Source: Candidatus Binatia bacterium (GTDB lineage Bacteria > Desulfobacterota > Binatia > UBA9968 > JAJDTQ01). Taken from it: a DNA stretch of 64,000 nt. Shown in pieces: positions 15,609 through 25,479 of this stretch (positions are counted from its first letter, which is position 1; each line of letters opens with the position of its first letter). Under the pieces are notes generated by a model, which saw nothing but the letters and a program-made list of their open reading frames with translations, had not been told where the DNA came from and searched no databases. Where the stretch lies: contig OY762897.2 in NCBI GenBank assembly GCA_963666515.2, forward strand, positions 2,080,001 to 2,144,000, in the 5' to 3' direction. A program made the translations under genes and the position numbers.

Positions 15609-17432
15609 TCAACGCTGCGCCCGAATGGCAGCGCGAAGCTCCTCCGTGGCCGCCGCGTCCACCGCCGTTTTCGAAGGGGTGAGGGCCACCCCGTATATCT
15701 CTTGCGCTACCTCCCGCGAGACGAGGCCGTTGGCCACGTCCCGGAGCACCGCTTCAGGTTCCCGGTCCAGCGGATCGCCGTAGCCGCCGCCGTTGGCCAG
15801 CCGCATGTACAGCACACTCCTGTCCTTCACGTCGAAGTCGCAGTAGGGGAGCATCTCCGACGTGCCTCCCATGGCTTCCACGTCCACCGGGTGCCGGTTC
15901 TCGCTCATCGTGTCCCAGATGTTGGTCTCTTCCTTCAGCACCAGCAGGCTGGGGGCGCCACAAAGGCCGCCGAACATTCCCTGGCCCGAGTTCCGCAGGC
16001 CCGCCACCCCCAGGGCCACGCCGCGGATCTGCCCTTCGGGGGCGTCATGAACGGTGAGGGCGGTCTCCGAGCCGGTGCCGCCCCGGAACCGCCCGGCGCC
16101 CGATCCGTCCTTCAGGTGGCGCCGGAAGAGATACAGGATGGGAAAGTTCTGCTCCACCCACTCGATGTTCTGACACGACGACCAGCCCCGGCCCCCCGAG
16201 TCCACGCCGTCCTTGTCGGCGCGGGCGCCACGTCCGTCTATCGCCCCTTCCGAGAGACTGGACACGTAGTACCGGCCGTACTGGTTGACCCCGGCGTGAC
16301 GGGCGAAACGGTGGCCAGCGTCGTGGGCCATCACCTCGTCCCGCCAGTGCTCGTTGGTGGCGAGCATCTGCATCATCACCGCGGGCGCCAGGTAGCGGGC
16401 GGTGGCTCCGCCGGAGGTGGTGTTCAACGAAACCGGACCGGGGTACTGCACGTTGGCCACGGTTCCCGGCGGAGCGACCACCTCGATGGGCGCGAAGGCG
16501 CCGTGGTTTTTCGGGATATCGTAACCGATGGTGGAGAGGACCGCGGCAAAGCAGGTGCCGTAGGTTGCATGGTACGGCAGGTTGATCCCGGTCTTGGCCT
16601 GCTTGTCGCTTCCGGTGAAGTCGAAGATCAGGCGGTCGTCCCGCTTGCTGAGGGTGACTTGCATCTTCCATGTCTCGTCGCCCTGGATGAGCCCGGTCTC
16701 GCTCCAGGAGCCGTCGGCAAACTCCCGGATGCGTTCCCGCAGCACCGATTCGGTAAAGCGGATGATCTCCCTCGACACCGCCTCCAGCATCTCGGGACCG
16801 TACTGGTCCACGACCTCGTGCACCCTGGCCTTGGCGACGTTGTTGGCGGCGATCTCGCACTTCAGGTCCAGCCCCACCATGATCGGCTGCCGGGTCATGG
16901 TCACGAAGGCGTCGAACACGTCGCTGCGGAGCTTTCCCCTTTCCACCAGCTTGATGCCCGGTATGCGCACGCCCTCATGACAGATGTCCGTTGCCGCGGG
17001 AGAGTTGCCGCCCGGGGACAGGGCGCCGATGTCCATGACGTGAACGAAGGTGGCGCTCCAGGCGATGCGGCGGCCCTCGTGATGGATGGGGGAAAGCACG
17101 TAGACGTCGGACTGGTGGATGGCCGCCTGGTAGGGGTCGTTCAGCAGGAAGACGTCGTCGGGAAAGATGCCGTCGCCGTGCTCGAAGCGCTCGATGATCT
17201 TCTTCACCGCGAAACCGGCGCAGGCGACGTGCTGGCCCAGCGACTCGCCCCCGGACAGCACGTCACCGTCCGCGGTATAGAGGGAAGCCATGTAGTCGTG
17301 CTGCTGGGTGGTGTTGACCGTCCCGCCCACCCTTTCGAGCGTAATGCCCATCTCCCGGGCGATCTGATGCAGCCGGTGCGAAAGGATCTCCATGGTGATG
17401 GGATCGACGCCGCCGTTTCGGGCTGTGGTCAT
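15609..17432 (-). CDS. Hydantoinase B/oxoprolinase subunit (copy 1)
   Basis: Same motifs as 6520-8340 and collinear with it. Confidence 0.93.
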   Translation of the reverse strand: MTTARNGGVDPITMEILSHRLHQIAREMGITLERVGGTVNTTQQHDYMASLYTADGDVLSGGESLGQHVACAGFAVKKIIERFEHGDGIFPDDVFLLNDPYQAAIHQSDVYVLSPIHHEGRRIAWSATFVHVMDIGALSPGGNSPAATDICHEGVRIPGIKLVERGKLRSDVFDAFVTMTRQPIMVGLDLKCEIAANNVAKARVHEVVDQYGPEMLEAVSREIIRFTESVLRERIREFADGSWSETGLIQGDETWKMQVTLSKRDDRLIFDFTGSDKQAKTGINLPYHATYGTCFAAVLSTIGYDIPKNHGAFAPIEVVAPPGTVANVQYPGPVSLNTTSGGATARYLAPAVMMQMLATNEHWRDEVMAHDAGHRFARHAGVNQYGRYYVSSLSEGAIDGRGARADKDGVDSGGRGWSSCQNIEWVEQNFPILYLFRRHLKDGSGAGRFRGGTGSETALTVHDAPEGQIRGVALGVAGLRNSGQGMFGGLCGAPSLLVLKEETNIWDTMSENRHPVDVEAMGGTSEMLPYCDFDVKDRSVLYMRLANGGGYGDPLDREPEAVLRDVANGLVSREVAQEIYGVALTPSKTAVDAAATEELRAAIRAQR

Positions 17433-17477
17433 GATGGCCTCCCAGGGCTCCTGCGCAACTCCATAACGCTGTTCGGG

Positions 17478-19574
17478 CTAGCCGACGTGGATCACGACGT
17501 TGCGGAACGCGTCCATCTCCGCGCGGTCCTTGGGGTTCACCACGATGGTGGTCACCGGGGTCTCGATGACCGCCGGTCCGGCGATGCTCATGCCCGGCGA
17601 CAGGCGTCCGAAATCATAGATGTCCGTGGCCGTGAAGCCTTCGTATTCCTCGAAGTACACGTCCCGCCGCTCCTTGCGAGCCTCCAGGACGTCACCGGGG
17701 CCGCCCGGGTGCTTGTGAACGGCCGGCTTGGCCAGCTTGCCGATGGCGGTGACTCTGAGCGACAGCATCTCCCTGCCCGCTTCCGGATACCCCGACCCCT
17801 TTCCGTACGACTGCTCGTACAGCTCGTCGAACCGGCTGCAGAGCTGCTCCAGATCGGCTTCCTGCAACGGACCCGCGCCGGGAACCGGAACATTGATCTC
17901 GTTGACTTGGTAGCGGTAGCGCATGTCGACGCTCCGCAGAATGACCGTGTCATCCTGCCTGAAACCGGCACTGGAGAGGTCTTCGGCGGCGTGGGCGCAC
18001 AGCTTGTCGAAGCCTCCGTTGAGACGCGCCGGGTCCAGCGGAACCACCGCGTGGTCGGACATGCCGTACTCGTAGGTTACGTCCGCGGAGATCAGCCCGG
18101 TCGAGGCATGCACGGAAGCCGTCAGGGGTATCACCACCTTGCGCACGCCGAGCTGCACGGCGCAACGGGCCACGTGGACCGGAGCCGATCCGCCGATGGC
18201 CACCATGGCGAAGTCCCGCGGGTCGTGCCCGCGCTCCACCGTGCAGCGGCGGATGAGGTCGCTCATGTGCGCATTGATGATGCGGAAGATCCCGCCCGCG
18301 GCCTGAACCGTCGTCATGTCCAGCGGCCCGGCGATGTGCTCGTCGATGGCGGCGGTGGCCTTTTCCTTGTCCAGGGTCATGCGCCCGCCGAGAAAGTACC
18401 CGGGGTTCAGATAGCCCAGGACCACGTCGGCGTCGCACACGGTGGGCTCGGTTCCACCCAGGCCGTACGCCACCGGGCCGGGAGCGGCGCCCGCTCCCCG
18501 GGGGCCGACCTTCAGCAGTCCCGAGTTGTCGTCGATCCAGGCAATGCTTCCGCCTCCCGCGCCGATGGACGCCACCCATATCTTCGGCGCCAGGATGCTG
18601 TAGCGTTCGAACACGGGCTGGAAGTCACGCTCGATATGTCCCCCCCGGACCAGGCTGACCTTGAAGGTGGTGCCGCCCATGTCGGTGGCCAGGACGTTCG
18701 GCTCGCCGATCATGTCGGCGATGAACTTGCTGCCCACGACTCCCGCCGCGGGCCCGGATTCCAGGGTCCCGATGGCGTTTTGGGAGGTGGCCTCGATGCT
18801 CAGCATGCCGCCGTAGGCTTGCATGACGAGGGGCGCGCTCTTGAGTCCGTTGCCGGCGAGCTTCTCCTGGAGACTCCGCATGTAGGCGACGATCTTGGGG
18901 GCGATGTAAGCGCTGAAGATGGTCGTCGTCGTGCGCTCGTATTCCCCCAGGAAAGGCGCGATGTCGCTGGAGCAGGTTACATGGACCTCGGGGTGCTTGC
19001 GGCGAATCACGTCCGCCACGGCCTTCTCGTGGGCGCTGTTGGCGATGGACCAGAGCAGACAGACGGCAACGGACTCCACCCCCTTGCCGACCAGCAGGCC
19101 GACCGCCTCCTCGATCCGCGCAGCATCGGTGTCGATGAGCACCGATCCCTTGTAGTCGATCCGGCCCGGCACCTCTTCCGTGAGCCCGCGCGGGACCAGC
19201 GGCTCGGGCTTCTTGAGCGCCGCCAGGTGAGAGGACTCGGACTCCGTCAGCCCGAGGTGCACGTTGCCGCGCATCATCAGGAAGGTGTCCGGAAAGCCCT
19301 CGGTGACCACCAGCCCGGTGACGGCCCCGGCCCGGGTGATGAGCGTGTTGTCGGCCACCGTGCAGGCGTGGAAGAAGAGGCGCGTGTGGCGCAAGAGGTC
19401 GCCTATGCCCGGCAGCCCCAGGTTCTCGGTGGCGTTGCGGAGAGAGTCGACCACGCCTACGGAGAAGTCATGAGGAGTCGAGAGCGCCTTGCCGATGGTC
19501 AGCTTGCCGTCGCTGTCCAGCACCACGCAGTCGGTGAAGGTGCCGCCGATGTCGACGCCGATGATGTATTCCAT
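17478..19574 (-). CDS. Hydantoinase A/oxoprolinase subunit (copy 1)
   Basis: GVDIGGTFTD, ESGPAAG, DMGGTTF; start at MEYIIG. Confidence 0.93.
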   Translation of the reverse strand: MEYIIGVDIGGTFTDCVVLDSDGKLTIGKALSTPHDFSVGVVDSLRNATENLGLPGIGDLLRHTRLFFHACTVADNTLITRAGAVTGLVVTEGFPDTFLMMRGNVHLGLTESESSHLAALKKPEPLVPRGLTEEVPGRIDYKGSVLIDTDAARIEEAVGLLVGKGVESVAVCLLWSIANSAHEKAVADVIRRKHPEVHVTCSSDIAPFLGEYERTTTTIFSAYIAPKIVAYMRSLQEKLAGNGLKSAPLVMQAYGGMLSIEATSQNAIGTLESGPAAGVVGSKFIADMIGEPNVLATDMGGTTFKVSLVRGGHIERDFQPVFERYSILAPKIWVASIGAGGGSIAWIDDNSGLLKVGPRGAGAAPGPVAYGLGGTEPTVCDADVVLGYLNPGYFLGGRMTLDKEKATAAIDEHIAGPLDMTTVQAAGGIFRIINAHMSDLIRRCTVERGHDPRDFAMVAIGGSAPVHVARCAVQLGVRKVVIPLTASVHASTGLISADVTYEYGMSDHAVVPLDPARLNGGFDKLCAHAAEDLSSAGFRQDDTVILRSVDMRYRYQVNEINVPVPGAGPLQEADLEQLCSRFDELYEQSYGKGSGYPEAGREMLSLRVTAIGKLAKPAVHKHPGGPGDVLEARKERRDVYFEEYEGFTATDIYDFGRLSPGMSIAGPAVIETPVTTIVVNPKDRAEMDAFRNVVIHVG

Positions 19575-19617
19575 GCACGCGCTCCGCCCGTAAATTGCCA
19601 CGCGGCATCGTGACAAG

Positions 19618-19983
19618 TCAATCCACGGGCGTGAGCACCTCGCTGGGAATGACCTCAATCATGCCGTTCCGCTCCGGGTCACGCACGACGCCGCGCGGGT
19701 CGCGGCCCTGGCGCACGCCGTCGGCGACCGTCACATCGAAGTCGCTCCAGTCCTCCTTCTCGGCTGCCATGGCGCGGTAGGTTTCTTTCCAGGACAGGCT
19801 GTTCGTTTCCTTGCCGTAAAGAAACACCCCATCCTCCACCTCTTCAAGGACAAGGGAATCGCCCCAACCGTACTTCTGCAAGAGGGCCTTCGGAAGACGT
19901 ATCCCCTTGGAGTTGCCCACCGAGACCAGCTTGACATCTCTCTTGACCGCCTTGTCACCTCTCGTGACCATTCCCTCACGCAT
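19618..19983 (-). CDS. AbrB/MazE-type antitoxin with a foreign C-terminal extension; no toxin gene follows
   Basis: KLVSVGNSKGIRLPKALL swapped-hairpin motif; acidic tail EDWSDFDVTVADG, then about 32 unrelated residues. Confidence 0.75.
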   Translation of the reverse strand: MREGMVTRGDKAVKRDVKLVSVGNSKGIRLPKALLQKYGWGDSLVLEEVEDGVFLYGKETNSLSWKETYRAMAAEKEDWSDFDVTVADGVRQGRDPRGVVRDPERNGMIEVIPSEVLTPVD

Positions 19984-20010
19984 CGTCGAACACCTCCTCG
20001 GGCAAGACTC

Positions 20011-20047
20011 GGTAATTACTGTAATTACCTGTGTTGCTTGACTTCAA
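20011..20047 (-). promoter_or_regulatory. Promoter and palindromic operator of the antitoxin gene
   Basis: Perfect GGTAATTAC-T-GTAATTACC (20011-20029) overlapping TTGAAG-N18-TACAGT on the minus strand. Confidence 0.65.
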
Positions 20048-20176
20048 GCGGTATCGTGGCTCGACTAGAATCCTTGATCGACAGGATCTTGACTCAGGAA
20101 GACAAGATATTTGAACTGGACTTCGTTCGTACATGAATACTATCGTAGGCCATCGCGAGTTGTAACGCTCGGTAGT

Positions 20177-21784
20177 TTAAGCGACGAGCTTCGCCTCATC
20201 GCAAATGGCATCGAGGTTCCTGGTGATGGCGGCAAAGCGCCGATGGGTCTTGGTATTGCCGCTCACGGCGTCGGGCGCAAGATGGGCCAGGCCGGGGCGA
20301 AGGATGCGGTTGTAGACACGCGTGTAGAACATCGCCACCTTGAGGCCGTGTTCGGTCAAGTGGTAGCGGTAGGCGCCGGGGATGCGCTCGATCAGGCCGT
20401 GCAGGCGCAGGCGTCTCAGGTCGTAACTCATTCGGCCCGGGCGCATTGGACTGGGATCGAGGCCCAGGAGTGCACCGAGGTGCCCGCGCAGGTCGCGGTT
20501 GGAGAAGCCGCGGGCCGAAAGAGTGAACAAGAGCAGGGCCTGCATCAGAGCCTGCACGCGCTCATCGGCGAAGCGCAGGGCCGAGGCGCGTTGTCCGTGG
20601 AACTCCAGGCCGCGTTGATGGCGTTGGAGTTCGTCTTCACCCAGGGCACAGTCGTGGCTGATGGTTTCTATCTGCAACAGACGACGGTTGGCTGTGAAGC
20701 CGACCTGGCACAACGCCGCCAGGTTAGACAGCCGCCGGCCCAGGGCGAAGTCATAGGTGTCGTTGACGGTGGTCTCGGTGCGCAGCGCCTGCCCTTCCTT
20801 GTGGTACTGCTTGATGCGCGAGTGCTTGTAGTCCACGTGCAAGGAAGGGGTGACGCCTGCGGTGATGACCCGGGTACGGAACCGACCGGGGGTGCGCCGG
20901 GTGACCCGGCGCTGGAAGATCAACTGCACCTGGCTGGGGCGACCGAGATCGAGGTTCTCGCGGATCACGTCCTCGAAAAAGACGCGGCCCGAGGCCGGGC
21001 GGTCGAGCACCTGGGTCAGGCTGAACTCCGCTTGCAGGATGGAGATGTCGTAGCGCAGACCGGCGCGACGGTCCTGAGGCGTATACGGATGCGGCAGGCG
21101 ATCGAACCACTTGCGCGCCAGTCTGTCGATGAAAGCGGCATCGAAGCCTTCGCAGATCTGTTGCAGCGCCTCGGGGTCTCCGCAGCAGCGCACGCCGTTG
21201 TCCAAAGCCTCGAACGGGATGCCGCGCTCGCGCAACTGGCACTTGGCGTACTCGTTGCCGTTGAGGCACAGCTTGCCGTTGTACGGGAAGTAGGTGCAGA
21301 ACTTGATGAAGAACGGCCCCGCCTGTTTGTCCACGCAATAGAAATACACATGGTTGACCATCGCGGTAGACGAGACCACCCACGGATAGGTGACCCCGGT
21401 GTCCGGGTTCCGGCGCCGCTCGGTGCGCATCACACGGGCCTTCTCCTGCGCTATCCCGATGTACAAAACCCCTTCGGTTCCCTTGAACCGCCCCAGGTAC
21501 TCCTGCGTCACCTCGTCCTTGCGCTGGCCCTTCTTGAAGTGCACCACCTCGATCTGCTCCCGCTCCGCAAAGTCCTTCACCGCCTGCACGAACTCCCGAC
21601 TCTTGGGCGCCAGCGCCACCGTCGACGCAAACCGCTGGCCATGGTGCTTGTGCAGATACCCCACTACCCCGCCCACGCTCTGCAACTGCGGCACATACAG
21701 GTTCAAGTACAGGCGATCCACCGACTCGTATTCCAGCGTCACGTGATCGCGCAATACTTCCGCTACGGTTTGTGGTAGGCTCAT
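20177..21784 (-). CDS. Putative transposase with Rep_trans-like core and C-terminal winged helix
   Basis: 535 aa from MSLPQTV; KQYHKEGQALRTETTVND; wHTH GFSNRDLR...SYDLRRLRLHGLIERIPGAYRYHLT. Confidence 0.65.
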   Translation of the reverse strand: MSLPQTVAEVLRDHVTLEYESVDRLYLNLYVPQLQSVGGVVGYLHKHHGQRFASTVALAPKSREFVQAVKDFAEREQIEVVHFKKGQRKDEVTQEYLGRFKGTEGVLYIGIAQEKARVMRTERRRNPDTGVTYPWVVSSTAMVNHVYFYCVDKQAGPFFIKFCTYFPYNGKLCLNGNEYAKCQLRERGIPFEALDNGVRCCGDPEALQQICEGFDAAFIDRLARKWFDRLPHPYTPQDRRAGLRYDISILQAEFSLTQVLDRPASGRVFFEDVIRENLDLGRPSQVQLIFQRRVTRRTPGRFRTRVITAGVTPSLHVDYKHSRIKQYHKEGQALRTETTVNDTYDFALGRRLSNLAALCQVGFTANRRLLQIETISHDCALGEDELQRHQRGLEFHGQRASALRFADERVQALMQALLLFTLSARGFSNRDLRGHLGALLGLDPSPMRPGRMSYDLRRLRLHGLIERIPGAYRYHLTEHGLKVAMFYTRVYNRILRPGLAHLAPDAVSGNTKTHRRFAAITRNLDAICDEAKLVA

Positions 21785-21788
21785 GTCC

Positions 21789-21930
21789 GGCTCCGGTTGC
21801 TTCGGGCTTTTATGCCCATTTGACCCTTTGAGGTCCGACCTTGCAAGGTCCCATGACCAGGGATTCAATCCCTGCTACAAGCGACCGGAGCCAATCCCCT
21901 TACCCCCTCGTCGGTCTGAGGCGAAGCCTC
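21789..21930. other. Multi-hairpin structured leader/end of the element
   Basis: Outer stem 21789-21802/21879-21892 enclosing four hairpins, plus GAGGC-GAA-GCCTC at 21918-21930. Confidence 0.7.
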
Positions 21931-22094
21931 GCTAGTCGTCGGCAGCGCCGCGGATTGCTTGCCCGGAAAACCGCGGCATGATTTGATCGTAGCAGGTCGA
22001 GGCGGTCGAGACGCTAGTCGCCGTGGCCGCGAAGAGGATTCCTAAAGAGTGCTGGGGAAAGGGTAGCGGCCGTGCATGAAACAGGGAGGCGGCG

Positions 22095-23342
22095 GTGAAG
22101 CTCGCCAAACTTGCGGTGATGCTGCTGGCCACGGCCCTGTCGGGGGCCGCCTTCGCCCAGACAACCCTCGTCCTCGAAAGCTGGCGGGACGACGACCGAA
22201 ACGTCTGGCGGAAGAACATCATACCGGCTTTCGAGGCCGCCCATCCCGGCATCAAGGTGCGGTTCCGGCCTTCCGCACCGGCCGACTACGATGCGGCCCT
22301 GAAGGCCCGGCTCAAGGCGGGCGCGGCCGGCGACCTGATCGCCTGCCGTCCGTTCGATGTCTCGATAGCCCTCTACGAGGCCGGACACCTCGCCGACCTC
22401 GGCAATCTCGACGGAATGGCCCGTTTCCCGGGTGTCGCGAAATCGGCTTGGCAGACCGATGACGGGGCCGTAACCTTCTGCGTTCCCGTGGCGTCCGTGA
22501 TCCACGGGTTTCTCTACAACCGGGAAGGGTTCCGTAAACTCGGACTCGATGCGCCCGAAACGGAAGATGAGTTTTTCGCGATCCTCGAAAGAATCCGCAA
22601 CGACGGCGCTTGGCTCCCGATGGCCCTGGGAGTCCGCGACCGGTGGGAAGCCGCGACCCTGGGCTACAACAACATCGGACCTGTCTACTGGAAGGGCGAG
22701 GAAGGCCGTCGAGCCCTTGTCGTCGGCCGGCAGAAATTGACCGACGAGCCGTGGGTGGCCCCCTTCCGGACCCTGTCCAGGTGGCGCCGCTATCTGGGCA
22801 AGGGGTATGAGACGCGGACCTACAAGGACAGCCAGGACCTCTTCGCCCTCGGCCGGGCGGCCGTCTATCCCGCCGGAAGCTGGGAGATCGCTGGTTTCAA
22901 CGCCCGGGCCAAGTTCACGATGGGCGCCTTCCGGCCACCCGTGCGAAAGGCCGGCGACGCCTGCTACATCTCCGACCACACCGACATGGCCATCGGCCTG
23001 AATACCGCCAGCCCGAACAAGGAGGCGGCGCGCGTCTTCCTCGACTGGGTGTCTTCGGCCGCCTTCGCTTCGCTCTACGCGCGGGTGCTGCCGGGGTTCT
23101 TTCCGCTGTCGGATCATCCGGTGGAAATAAACGACCCGCTGGCCCGGACCTTCCTTTCCTGGCGTGACGAATGCCGTTCGACCATCCGTTTCGCGTCCCG
23201 CATCCTGTCGCGCGGAACGCCGAACCTGGAACGCGAGACCTGGAATGCCTCGGTCGCCGCGATCCGTGGCACGGCGCCCGCGCAGGAACTCGGCGCCCGG
23301 CTGCAGAAACAACTGGCACGCTGGTACGCGCCGCATCAGTAG
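22095..23342 (+). CDS. Sugar ABC transporter substrate-binding protein (orphan)
   Basis: Signal peptide, GGAGG RBS, ESWRDDD, GDLIACRPFD, VIHGFLYN; no permease adjacent. Confidence 0.88.
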   Translation: MKLAKLAVMLLATALSGAAFAQTTLVLESWRDDDRNVWRKNIIPAFEAAHPGIKVRFRPSAPADYDAALKARLKAGAAGDLIACRPFDVSIALYEAGHLADLGNLDGMARFPGVAKSAWQTDDGAVTFCVPVASVIHGFLYNREGFRKLGLDAPETEDEFFAILERIRNDGAWLPMALGVRDRWEAATLGYNNIGPVYWKGEEGRRALVVGRQKLTDEPWVAPFRTLSRWRRYLGKGYETRTYKDSQDLFALGRAAVYPAGSWEIAGFNARAKFTMGAFRPPVRKAGDACYISDHTDMAIGLNTASPNKEAARVFLDWVSSAAFASLYARVLPGFFPLSDHPVEINDPLARTFLSWRDECRSTIRFASRILSRGTPNLERETWNASVAAIRGTAPAQELGARLQKQLARWYAPHQ

Positions 23343-23600: not shown

Positions 23601-25389
23601 CCGGCCCCGTTGCCGTACAGGTGCTCCACGACCCGTTCGAGAGTCTCGCGCTTCGCCCTTTTCTTCACCAACCGCTCGACTTCCTCCATTTCCTGGGGTG
23701 ACGGCAACGGCAGTGCTTCCATCTCGTAGGCCGAGACGGCCACGCTACCGTTGATGCACCGGAATACCTGGTCGACGACGTGACTGTTCAAGAGGGCTGC
23801 CAACGCCGCCGGCGCCACCTTCGGGGTGTCGTCAAGCGGTTTGATCATGTTCAAGTGATTCTCGACGACAACCGCACCGTACTCGTCCATAAACGGCTCG
23901 GGCAGTTCCACCGCGATCAAACGCCGGCATTGCTCCTTGGCCGTCGTCCTTTGCAACAGCACGCACGGTGATCCGTCACGACCCAGGTCTCGTTTGCGTT
24001 CGGCTCAAAATAGGGTTTGTGGTTTCGCTTGTCCGCCCTGAACTCGAACACGCCATCGGACCGTACGGATTCAGCCCAGATCAAAGGATAGCGTCCCTTT
24101 CCCGGTCGGTCCCGCAGGCTCTCCTTGTGGCGGTTCCACACCAGTGGTCCCGTACTGACCGTGTAACCGTAGTCCGCCAACCGATGGGGCATCTCGTCAA
24201 CCCGCCGTACCAGCGCGTCTTGTGCTTCCTTCCTGGGCATCAGCCACGGATGGTCCACGGTCTCGGGCAAGTTGAACGAGCCTGTGGGGTTCGTCTCGAT
24301 ACAGCCGTCTGGTTCCGGTGTGACGAAATGCACCTCTCCGGCTGTTGGATCCCCTCCGTGTCGGTAGGTTGCCAAGAGCGTTTCCTGCAGCACGTTGGCG
24401 AACACGCCCTTGCGTGCTCCGATGAAATCAATCCTCACCGGCGGCGCTTCCCGTCCCAGCAATCCGCGTAGCGCCTTGAAATACTCCCCGGCCAGGAAAC
24501 TCGTCGGGGTCACGAAAGCAATGATCCCGCCCGGCCGCGAGAAACGGAGCGCCAAGTCCGTGAACACGCCGTACAGGTTCGCATGGCCGAACAGGCTACG
24601 CCGATATTTCTTGCGCAACCACGACGACAGCGTGATGCGCCCGTAGGGCGGATTCCCCACCACCAAATCGAACCCTTCTTCCCCCGGCATCTGGTCGAGA
24701 CTGTCGCACACACGCACGACGGACCGAAGCCGGATGCCTGGTTCGCCGTACAGTCCACCGAGCGTCACATCGAGAAACACCTGCGACATCCAAGCCGCAA
24801 ACGGGTCCAGCTCGAACCCGATCAAGCGACGTTGTATGTCCCTCAGAGCAGCATTGGCGCTGCGGTCCTTGAGGCATTCCGCCATGCGCCGGGCCACCGG
24901 AGACAAGAAGGCGCCCCCGCCACAAGCCGGGTCCAGCACCCGGGCCGAAAGCCAGTCGACGCCGGCGTACGTCGCCATATCCAACAGCCGCTCGCACAGT
25001 GCTGGCGGGGTGTAGTACGCGCCCAACTGCGCCCGGAACGTGCTGGGCATCATCCCGGTGTAAAGCGTTCCGATCATGTAGCCGGTGTCCGCGACATCCA
25101 ACTCGGAAGCCGCCGTCCCGATGCTTTCCGCCAACTCCGCTGCTTCCTCTGAGACCGCAGGAAGCTCTATCTCGGACGGGACGTTGCGGAGTGCCCAACC
25201 TCGACCGGACACCGCATCGACGTGCGTCCAGTAAGCGGAGATTGCGCCGAAGACGACCGCCCGCGCGAAGTCCAATCGGGCTTCGCCGGTGACCGACGAC
25301 GCCAGTGTCCGGGCGCTCGACGATAGATGCTCAACCATCGACCGGGCTGACATTGCCGGATCCCTCTCTCCGTTCGCCGCCAAATTCAC
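23597..25389 (-). pseudogene. N6-adenine DNA methyltransferase (Eco57I/BsuBI-like), frameshifted
   Basis: GAYYTP, LDPACGGGAF, VVGNPPY; frame changes at about 23967, and one added base restores DHPCVLLQRTTAKEQ. Confidence 0.82.
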
Positions 25390-25396
25390 CACCCCC
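25244..25396. repeat. Diverged direct repeat, copy A (5' end of MTase gene)
   Basis: 153 bp ungapped match to 34843-34995; 25 mismatches by hand count. Confidence 0.9.
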
Positions 25397-25479
25397 GTCG
25401 TCACGATGCCTCGGGTCCCGTATTCAACCGCCGGACCTGTCTCTCCCGGATAACACATGCACCCGACGGGTTCCTTGGG

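Follow-up and report, generated by a model that had tools for sequence, protein, structure and literature searches.

An insertion sequence at CTAG sites of Candidatus Binatia with a putative transposase of predicted TBP-like fold

Which kind of mobile element occupies positions 20065-21935 of the DNA analysed here, and which type of enzyme moves it? The DNA in question, in the following called the window, is the whole stretch of 64,000 nucleotides located at C1:2080001-2144000 of the assembly of a Candidatus Binatia bacterium (GCA_963666515.2, contig OY762897.2). The original prediction, made from the letters alone, had described the element as a CTAG-bounded mobile unit without terminal inverted repeats, encoding a single protein with features of Rep_trans nickases, and had been unable to place it in a defined insertion sequence family. 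Here, we report that this element is a real, recently active insertion sequence, and very probably an undescribed one. According to our preferred reading, to which we assign a probability of roughly 0.6, it is an active member of a large undescribed family of insertion sequences, whose transposase combines a DNA-binding winged helix with a nuclease of the Rep_trans / Rep-Arvir kind that has the fold of the TATA-binding protein (TBP).

Copies, borders and empty sites

The borders of the element and its coding capacity are given below; left and right are read along the strand of its open reading frame (ORF).

20065..20068, no strand: CTAG adjoining the right end; element-owned or shared with the target in the favoured model (the right end closes in CTAG in 39 of 41 readable related loci)
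20069..21931, minus strand: core of the insertion sequence, 1863 bp between the two CTAGs, identical in nine copies (genome search)
21932..21935, no strand: CTAG adjoining the left end; the fourth base is carried by the element and is G here and A in most relatives (comparison of copies and loci)
20177..21784, minus strand: sole long ORF of the element, 535 aa, putative transposase; its ATG at 21784 agrees with the start of the homologues

A search of the whole assembly (4.67 Mb, two contigs) recovered nine copies of the core, all of them 100% identical; seven share one orientation and two have the opposite one. All nine are directly bordered by CTAG on both sides, and their flanks are otherwise unrelated. 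With 1197 occurrences in 4.66 Mb of chromosome, compared to approximately 14,760 expected from base composition, CTAG is so rare here that the eighteen flanking tetranucleotides cannot be due to chance. Among the 25 longest inverted pairs (of 157 found), none connects both termini, in agreement with the claimed absence of terminal inverted repeats. The palindrome CGACTAGTCG that had been noted at the rejoined site is present, but this holds for the window's site only, as the other eight share nothing beyond CTAG. A promoter scan found no sigma-70-like promoter in or beside the element, and an Rfam scan of 19000-23000 yielded two chance-level rows only, both below threshold. Using tblastn together with a left-end motif search, the same nine copies were detected in the assembly along with one short remnant near C1:2645461-2645643. 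This remnant consists of two adjoining 92-bp pieces that are 90-92% identical to internal parts of the element and stems from an older, diverged copy.

The state of a site prior to insertion can be read in another genome of the same genus (G008), which is 96% identical in the flanks of the copy at 1796292 and in which these flanks are joined by a single CTAG (GACCACG-CTAG-TGTCGATAC). At the site of the copy at 943997, the same genome shows one CTAG where the right flank starts, with a left side that is diverged yet alignable, and probably represents a single-CTAG empty site here as well. For the copies at 856092, 1046029, 4413314, 4322590 and 3519751, no empty site was readable in three relatives, the flanks being absent or too diverged, and none was found for the window copy among 30 relatives. 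When the flanks of all nine copies were rejoined in silico with zero, one or two CTAGs, only one CTAG opened long frames across the junction. This was the case at three of the nine sites (976, 840 and 415 codons), the other six being intergenic or uninformative. Pfam searches with the half-genes flanking these three insertions revealed no domain spanning a junction, so that frame continuity is the sole support there.

Public sequencing runs of the same organism (X16, X17 and X19) were compared at the window's site. In X17 and X19, the flank contigs extend 26-29 bases into the element and the junctions are thus present, and in X16 the left-flank contig ends at 20066. Another contig of X16, 442 bases long and at flank depth (6.4), holds 21935-22345 plus 31 more letters, namely one 'C' and then sequence ending at 20066, thus linking 20066 to 21935. 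We read this contig as an empty allele, GGCTCGACT-C-GTCGTCGG. The window's site is accordingly polymorphic among near-identical strains, which fits the presence of nine identical copies. Relative to its flanks, the element showed an approximately 8-fold depth in X16 and a 10-11-fold depth in X17 and X19. In a metagenome run (X1), an element of about 94% identity lies next to a different left flank, and the likeness begins exactly at 20065. As a separate observation, window positions 19437-19632 displayed a very high contig depth in all four runs compared.

Overall, the element shows what is generic for insertion sequences, namely several identical copies with defined ends, sites found empty, and only one gene, which serves its own movement. 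The extra copies and empty CTAG sites, together with the conserved ends described in the following section, confirm the CTAG-bounded mobile element that had been proposed.

Ends, miniature derivatives and leader

Three further features of the element belong to its ends and to the non-coding part between the left end and the ORF.

20069..20108, minus strand: right end, whose terminal CAAGGATT fits the conserved CAAGGAnT, with two small hairpins (20070-20087 and 20086-20108)
21907..21931, minus strand: conserved left-end block CGAGGCTTCGCCTCAGACCGACGAG with the hairpin GAGGC-TTC-GCCTC (21918-21930), from alignments of relatives
21789..21892, minus strand: structured 5' leader (inverted pair I22), with covariation in 9 of 11 pairs among 44 relatives

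The ends of the element are conserved across phyla. The consensus of the left end reads CTA(A/G)-C-GAGGC-loop-GCCTC-AGACCGACGAG and that of the right end AAACTTGACTCA..CAAGGAnT-CTAG, in which the conserved AAACTTGACTCA is located approximately 35-40 bp inside. Read along the ORF strand, the left-end motif (C/T)TA-N-CG(A/G)GGC-loop-GCC(T/C)C-AG was found in 65 of 80 loci from other phyla; the four bases before it are CTAA in 48, CTAG in 16 and TTAG in one of these loci, and 53 of the loci have GAGGC/GCCTC as hairpin stem, the other 12 GGGGC/GCCCC. A right end of the form CAAG(A/G)..(C/T)TA-N follows in 41 of the 65 loci at a distance of 1750-2009 bp downstream (median 1826). It closes in CTAG in 39 of the 41, and most of the remaining loci run off contigs. 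The same limits of the element are set by within-genome copies in other genomes, and a relative on a Mycobacterium riyadhense plasmid (41% identical) has CTAG on both sides and a similar GAGGC/GCCTC hairpin. All three hairpins reported in the original prediction exist, but only the left one gains comparative support: GAGGC/GCCTC is kept in 44 of 44 aligned relatives, ten of which show a compensatory exchange of an A-T for a G-C pair. The conserved AAACTTGACTCA of related right ends also contains TTGACT, an outward-pointing -35-like hexamer that might serve to express adjacent genes or be part of a promoter formed at the junction; the window copy has a degenerate version of it (CTTGTCT).

The fourth base of the left-end tetranucleotide is near-constant within a genome. 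It is A in 6 of 7 copies of G061 and in all copies of G062 (6/6), G064 (4/4) and G065 (7/7), and it is G in all three copies of G063 as well as in the nine copies of the source genome of the window, whereas the right end is always CTAG among these copy sets. The left fourth base hence travels with the element, which leaves CTA as the core shared by both junctions and excludes a true 4-bp duplication for most lineages. In the simplest account, an element junction CTA-N-CGAGG and a target CTA-G would undergo exchange at CTA|N.

Duplication of TA inside CTAG, written as C-TA-[N...C]-TA-G, would fit the letters equally well. In that case, the element could be of the cut-and-paste type in the manner of IS630/Tc1-mariner (C-TA-[G...C]-TA-G in the window), moved by a metal nuclease without a covalent tyrosine link. 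IS630 targets CTAG and duplicates TA, and every copy can be read with CTA before and TAG after the element; furthermore, the empty site is CTAG, the copies show no orientation bias (see below), and several acidic residues of the protein are invariant. However, terminal inverted repeats are missing, the two ends differ from each other and bear hairpins, and the predicted fold of the protein is TBP-like and not RNase H-like, with no match to a DDE model in Pfam or NCBIfam. We therefore consider this explanation quite unlikely.

Some irregular copies and fragments were noted alongside these ends. The sole copy of G061 with CTAG instead of CTAA at the left differs also at the base before the right CTAG, and those two differences are the only ones in 1830 bp. 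Runs of CTAG-like tetranucleotides (CTAG-CTAC-CTAG-CTAC-CTAG; TAGCTATAG-CTAG) adjoin some copy ends in Rhodococcus and G063 (L023 3180-3205; L108, L113 and L118 at approximately 1490-1507), and could be scars left when insertion recurred at the CTAG that flanks the element itself. In genomes of the same genus without a full element, matches of 29-48 bp (92-97%) to the left terminus and to an internal piece were found (G016:C208:52810-52885; G035:C1:2068588-2068616; G045:C2:1332740-1332772), which we regard as apparent remnants or solo ends.

A miniature derivative was found in a gammaproteobacterial metagenome-assembled genome (MAG; G066) that also carries full-length copies. Here, an 89-bp unit stands head to tail before a full copy, with one CTAG shared between the two (L082 1240-1336). 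It joins the outermost 26-30 nt of the left end to the terminal 63 nt of the right end and has 14 full-length matches in this genome at 93-100% identity. Twelve of the loci were read (L169-L180); two of them represent one segmental duplication, which leaves 11 distinct sites with unrelated flanks. CTAG is found on both sides at ten of these sites, and CTAG...CCAG at the remaining one. This distribution indicates that the ends suffice in cis and that the element is moved in trans, as would be expected if the ORF encodes the transposase.

The 5' leader comprises 147 nt and contains a long-range stem that pairs GGCTCCGGTCG with CGACCGGAGCC just ahead of the ATG (GGCTCCGGT at 21892-21879 with ACCGGAGCC at 21802-21789). 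The stem encloses two or three smaller, variable hairpins, and the GGAG ribosome-binding site, located directly before the ATG, is buried in it. In the alignment underlying the covariation of its pairs, which are compensatory in the 9 of 11 cases listed above, 86% of the cells are paired, compared to 28-44% when the partners were slid by 1-3 columns, and 0 of 500 shuffles attained the observed value. We read this stem as a translational restraint of the transposase. The miniature lacks the leader, which is thus not needed in cis.

A conserved, covarying non-coding leader that adjoins the left end could also speak for conservative site-specific recombination, in which a circular form and the target would recombine via the CTA core following the logic of IS110/IS1111 or IS607, using an unrelated enzyme, and in which the leader might take part. 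Both junctions have CTA in common, with a fourth base that is element-borne at the left and G at the right, and there are neither inverted repeats nor a duplication beyond the core nor a strand bias. On the other hand, a 4-base target needs no guide, and the position of the stem over the ribosome-binding site suggests translation control. Moreover, the 89-bp miniature has spread without the leader, and no match of the protein to DEDD or serine recombinases was found. The missing DEDD model match and the absence of the leader from this mobile derivative likewise distinguish the element from IS110/IS1111, and recombination of this kind seems unlikely.

The transposase and its predicted fold

Within the ORF, the following domains and candidate residues were delineated.

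20645..21784, minus strand: residues 1-380, predicted TBP-like double domain, putative Rep_trans-like nuclease (structure prediction and searches)
20273..20641, minus strand: residues 382-504, winged helix-turn-helix domain (numerous structural matches to proteins of this class, Z 8-9.4; weak Pfam matches of this type)
20804..20806, minus strand: codon of Y327 in K-Q-Y-H-K, candidate catalytic tyrosine (invariant in 25 of 25 sequences; predicted beta strand 322-329)
21716..21718, minus strand: codon of D23 in VDRLYL, candidate metal ligand (invariant in 25 of 25 sequences)

The 535-aa protein has no sequence match in NCBIfam, PHROGs or the PDB, and Pfam gave only a sub-threshold winged helix (AbiEi_4, E 0.06). 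Likewise, 25 relatives have no match to a Pfam or NCBIfam family beyond a weak winged helix; their profile obtained only weak winged-helix and chance matches against the PDB, and a feature search of the ESM Atlas returned only unnamed clusters with scores of 0.77-0.81, which is under the useful range. The NCBIfam models presumably cover the defined insertion sequence families, and the original failure to place the element in one of them is upheld by these searches.

The family as such is large. More than 8000 word-sharing relatives were found, all unnamed or 'hypothetical' and most of them on contigs of 1.8-2.0 kb, as expected of a repeat that breaks assemblies, and a full HMMER scan gave 10,355 clusters at 50% identity (E up to 0.001). 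Relatives annotated as 'hypothetical protein' occur on plasmids of Burkholderia, Caballeronia, Rhodococcus and Mycobacterium; others are found in MAGs labelled Acidobacteriota, Chloroflexota, Actinomycetota, Planctomycetota, Verrucomicrobiota, Cyanobacteria, Armatimonadota and several proteobacterial classes.

The motifs of the original prediction are located at residues 22-27 (VDRLYL), 251-255 (QAEFS), 325-329 (KQYHK) and 334-337 (LRTE), and conservation was assessed on the basis of 25 sequences, down to 29% identity. Invariant are D23, R24, Q113, E114, Y147, G156, F159, P167, N175, N196, Q251, E253, F290, K325, Y327, R335, D345, Y454, L456 and L459; near-invariant are D152, K320, K329, E337 and N341. 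Hence, the candidate residues put forward earlier are either invariant (D23, E253, Y327, R335) or nearly so (K329, E337). D23, Q113, E114, D152, Q251, E253, Y327 and E337 all lie on predicted strands, with K325-Q-Y327-H-K329 on strand 322-329 and R335-T-E337 on strand 333-340. In the model, this is the pattern of an enzyme with its active site on a sheet and, in view of the predicted fold and the motif logic, a parallel to Rep_trans. At the C-terminus (window 20177-20185), nearly all relatives end in A-A (e.g. KLAA or KIAA), where the window copy has KLVA; we take this ending to resemble an ssrA-type tail, which could mark the transposase for degradation by ClpXP or Tsp.

Alternatively, the ORF might encode a DNA-binding passenger or regulator of an element that is moved by an enzyme encoded elsewhere. 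The only sequence-level signal is indeed the weak winged helix, and one distant relative is annotated as an ArsR regulator. Nevertheless, the ORF is the sole gene of the element in every lineage read and is accompanied by the same ends in different phyla, at identities of 41-65%, its set of conserved polar residues on a beta sheet is enzyme-like, and the miniatures were found in a genome that also has full-length copies. A mere passenger is highly improbable on these grounds.

The structure was predicted by AlphaFold2 with 25 diverse sequences (mean pLDDT 86 and pTM 0.80 for the full protein; pLDDT 81.5 for the N-terminal 380 residues modelled alone). In this prediction, residues 1-380 form two similar sheet-plus-helix halves, as in the TBP-like double domain, and residues 382-504 form a winged helix, which agrees with the C-terminal winged helix recognised earlier. 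A search of 48,161 representative chains with the model of the double domain yielded only 18 chains with a Z of at least 5, and the top seven of these are TBPs and Rep_trans initiators (rmsd, root-mean-square deviation):

TBP: 1MP9_B, Z 8.9, 178/189 residues aligned, rmsd 4.2
TBP: 7O4I_O, Z 7.6; 5FUR_A, Z 7.3; 6E24_A, Z 6.8; 6CNB_R, Z 6.6
Rep_trans: 4CWC_A, Z 6.9, 181 residues aligned, rmsd 5.1, model residues 16-380 on chain residues 39-241
Rep_trans: 4CIJ_A, Z 6.5, 189 residues aligned

Foldseek assigned a probability of 0.98-0.99 to chains of 4CIJ (E 1e-3 to 5e-3). Matches in a viral structure library comprised A0A345MNV4, A0A2N9QVX7 and giant-virus TBPs, the best one being an unnamed 468-aa protein (E 1.5e-6). 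The predicted N-terminal part hence displays the TBP-like fold that characterises the catalytic domain of Rep_trans.

According to the accessible text of one study, Rep_trans enzymes have the TBP fold, and RepDE carries Y191 together with D46, D142 and E214 (PMC13107129). The same text describes archaeal Rep-Arvir proteins with a TBP-like domain and a MarR-like winged helix, a fusion that is, as far as this text goes, not seen in bacterial Rep_trans; it also names A0A345MNV4 (a Rep_trans protein of Inoviridae) and A0A2N9QVX7 (a TBP) as structural neighbours of RepSNJ2 (PMC13107129). According to the available part of a review, the tyrosine of Rep_trans sits on a beta strand, and the motifs comprise an N-terminal Asp, RxD, (T/S)x(Y/E)xG, YxKxxE and (W/L)xRxE (PMC5714925). 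Taken together, these excerpts describe a strand-borne tyrosine, YxK followed by RxE, and three acidic ligands (PMC5714925, PMC13107129). In our alignment of four Rep_trans proteins, the corresponding positions, as displayed by RepC, are D46, R140-x-D142, Y191-x-K193 and W211-R212-x-E214. Placed on the predicted structure, the conserved D23, E114, E253, K325-x-Y327, R335, K329 and E337 would fit a tyrosine nickase of the Rep_trans type. Candidates for its acidic ligands are the invariant D23, E114 and E253 and the near-invariant D152 and E337, compared to the three (D, D, E) expected for Rep_trans. As model residue 16 falls on residue 39 of 4CWC, we infer that D23 comes to lie near D46 of RepDE, provided that the VIA alignment is gapless there.

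The nearest structural relatives are thus replication initiators, and a TBP-like domain with a winged helix is the layout of Rep-Arvir. The element might therefore be seen as an integrated miniature rolling-circle replicon, whose protein would mainly initiate replication of an excised 1.87-kb circle, with integration at CTAG as a side reaction of the same nickase; the location of most homologues on contigs of 1.8-2.0 kb could be taken in the same sense. Yet short contigs are expected for any repeat, and no self-closing contig was seen. Both the nine copies in this genome and those read in six others have defined flanks and a chromosomal location, and the element is missing from the second contig of the assembly (5333 bp), so that we judge an integrated replicon to be very unlikely.

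Several observations count against our preferred reading of a Rep_trans-like transposase acting on hairpin-bearing ends at CTAG. The link to Rep_trans is by predicted fold only and its scores are middling (Z 6.5-6.9, Foldseek E of about 1e-3, TM 0.2-0.4). TBP, a non-enzyme, scores higher (Z 8.9), and the best Foldseek E-value, 1.8e-5, belongs to the polyketide cyclase di-domain 4XRW, at a low TM. At the level of sequence, PF02486 matched neither the protein (E up to 1) nor the 25 relatives (E up to 10) nor the six-frame translated genome with its nine copies, and hhalign of the N-terminal profile against four Rep_trans proteins gave a probability of 0.1. Membership in Rep_trans is therefore not supported by sequence, and the likeness that had been proposed stands for the predicted fold (4CIJ, 4CWC_A) and fails for the profiles. 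In the model, the equivalences of Y327 with Y191 and of D23 with D46 are only putative, and Y327 and E337 are spaced by 10 residues versus 23 in RepC. In terms of energy, the terminal hairpins are weak; folding those of the window as DNA gave no advantage over shuffles (z of 0.26 and -0.61), and covariation was absent from the right-end stem, for which RNAalifold returned four invariant pairs only.

Orientation relative to replication belongs to the same set of observations. With origins taken from GC skew or dnaA and termini assumed opposite, no bias was found among the nine copies of this genome (6:3), the miniatures of G066 (7:7) or the copies of G062 (3:3), although these numbers are small. 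IS200/IS605-type single-strand transposons show such a bias, and its absence here argues against an insertion confined to the lagging-strand template. Beside the presumed origin (3.8-4.0 Mb of G000 C1), there is an abrupt step of about +2.4 in cumulative GC skew over a span of 200 kb, which points to a strongly skewed segment or to an assembly or rearrangement feature.

Finally, the sole empty allele recovered for the window's site, that of X16, reads CTCG and not CTAG. The X16 flank contigs (five pieces, approximately 3.8 kb) otherwise show no difference from the window, which makes a chance single-nucleotide polymorphism at this base unlikely, and none of the insertion or excision schemes that we tried accounts for the change, as no single cut-and-join route turns a CTCG target into an insertion with CTAG on either side. 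Another mutation that arose independently in this intergenic control region, which lies between a MazE-like gene and a solute-binding protein gene, is possible but unsupported. Considering all of the above, Rep_trans-type chemistry of the transposase appears to us somewhat more probable than its absence.

Proposed transposition and relation to known systems

Any mechanism has to account for a single-gene element with asymmetric, hairpin-bearing ends located 1-3 nt from CTA-N, which targets CTAG with a net gain of the core plus four bases and has mobilisable end-only derivatives. In the scheme that we favour, the protein would recognise the left and the right end, both of which bear hairpins that the winged helix and the saddle of the TBP-like domain would bind, and would probably act as a dimer by analogy with Rep_trans. 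Tyr327 would serve as the nucleophile that nicks one strand at CTA|N beside each hairpin, forming a 5' link, and the conserved acidic residues would provide the metal site, with D23, E114, D152, E253 and E337 as candidates. Joining of both ends would create a junction with a single CTA-N, and reversal of the reaction at a target CTAG would add 1867 bp in net terms, flanked by CTAG at either side, with nothing else duplicated. For the intermediate, a single-stranded circle of the IS200/IS605 type, a rolling-circle copy of the IS91 type and a nicked duplex are all conceivable.

Among known systems, Rep_trans/MOB_T (PF02486; pT181 RepC, pC221 RepD, RepSTK1; 4CWC, 4CIJ) resembles the element in the predicted TBP-like double-domain fold, a conserved candidate tyrosine on a predicted strand in a YxK context followed by RxE, a conserved N-terminal Asp on the first strand, and DNA hairpins that adjoin the presumed nick sites. 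In contrast to these proteins, however, that of the element shows no sequence or profile similarity and is approximately 220 residues longer, with a C-terminal winged helix; the element is chromosomal, multi-copy and two-ended, behaves like a transposon and not like a replicon, and has its presumed nick site outside the hairpin instead of in the loop. With Rep-Arvir (RepSNJ2, DUF7845), as portrayed in the accessible part of PMC13107129, it has in common the layout of a TBP-like catalytic domain, predicted in the present case, plus winged helix and the structural neighbours A0A2N9QVX7 and A0A345MNV4. It differs by the absence of a DUF7845 match, by its occurrence in bacteria, and by transposition instead of archaeal viral or plasmid replication.

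The overall architecture resembles that of IS200/IS605: there are no inverted repeats, the unlike ends have subterminal hairpins, the short target is fixed without further duplication, and miniatures consist of the ends only. Unlike these elements, whose transposases have about 150 aa, the one described here encodes 535 aa without HUH motif or fold (no Pfam or NCBIfam match; predicted TBP-like fold), has the same CTA(G) at both ends and shows no lagging-strand orientation bias. The likeness to Helitron ends is, as we presume, only loose. A preference for CTAG as target is shared with IS630 and IS5, the latter of which duplicates CTAG or YTAR, but both the DDE transposase and the terminal inverted repeats of IS630, IS5 and Tc1-mariner elements are absent here. 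IS91, ISCR and Helitrons, as far as covered in the available text of PMC5714925, likewise lack inverted repeats, target a tetranucleotide, bear hairpins close to their ends and employ a nickase of the Rep type as transposase, as is proposed here; the enzyme of the present element is predicted to have a TBP fold and not an HUH fold, and no one-ended or read-through products were seen.

The surroundings of the insertion in the window comprise the following genes.

15609-19658: hydantoinase/oxoprolinase A and B genes left of the element, belonging to a many-membered paralogue family in the genus
19618-19983: small MazE/AbrB-like gene directly beside the insertion
23917-25458: Eco57I-type N6 DNA methylase gene, 2 kb right of the element

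To our knowledge, the known prokaryotic transposases fall into a handful of catalytic classes. A literature search conducted without ISfinder, subscription journals and supplements found no description of the element or of any Rep_trans-like or TBP-fold transposase. As far as the available part of one source goes, IS200/IS605, IS91/ISCR, Helitrons and Replitrons are the only Rep-type transposons described, and these use HUH enzymes (10.1101/2022.12.15.520654), and reviews, in their accessible sections, place Rep_trans only in plasmids, phages and conjugative elements (PMC5714925, PMC13107129). We see about an even chance that the element belongs to the first transposon family driven by a tyrosine nickase of TBP fold (Rep_trans / Rep-Arvir superfamily), distinct from the DDE, DEDD, HUH, serine and tyrosine-recombinase types.

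If this holds true, a second, non-HUH lineage of rolling-circle initiators would also have given rise to transposons, and a compact enzyme for DNA insertion at CTAG would be at hand. An insertion sequence family that relies on the other Rep fold would constitute an additional class of transposases and supply the annotation models that are missing, and it would explain thousands of 'hypothetical proteins' on metagenome contigs of 1.8-2 kb. With its 4-base target, small requirements in cis (approximately 30 + 63 nt) and a single protein, the system lends itself directly to testing and may have use as a tool. Members of the family are found in great numbers across many bacterial phyla, with ends conserved almost base for base, and the preference of the element for CTAG bears on the question of why this tetranucleotide is so rare in bacterial genomes.

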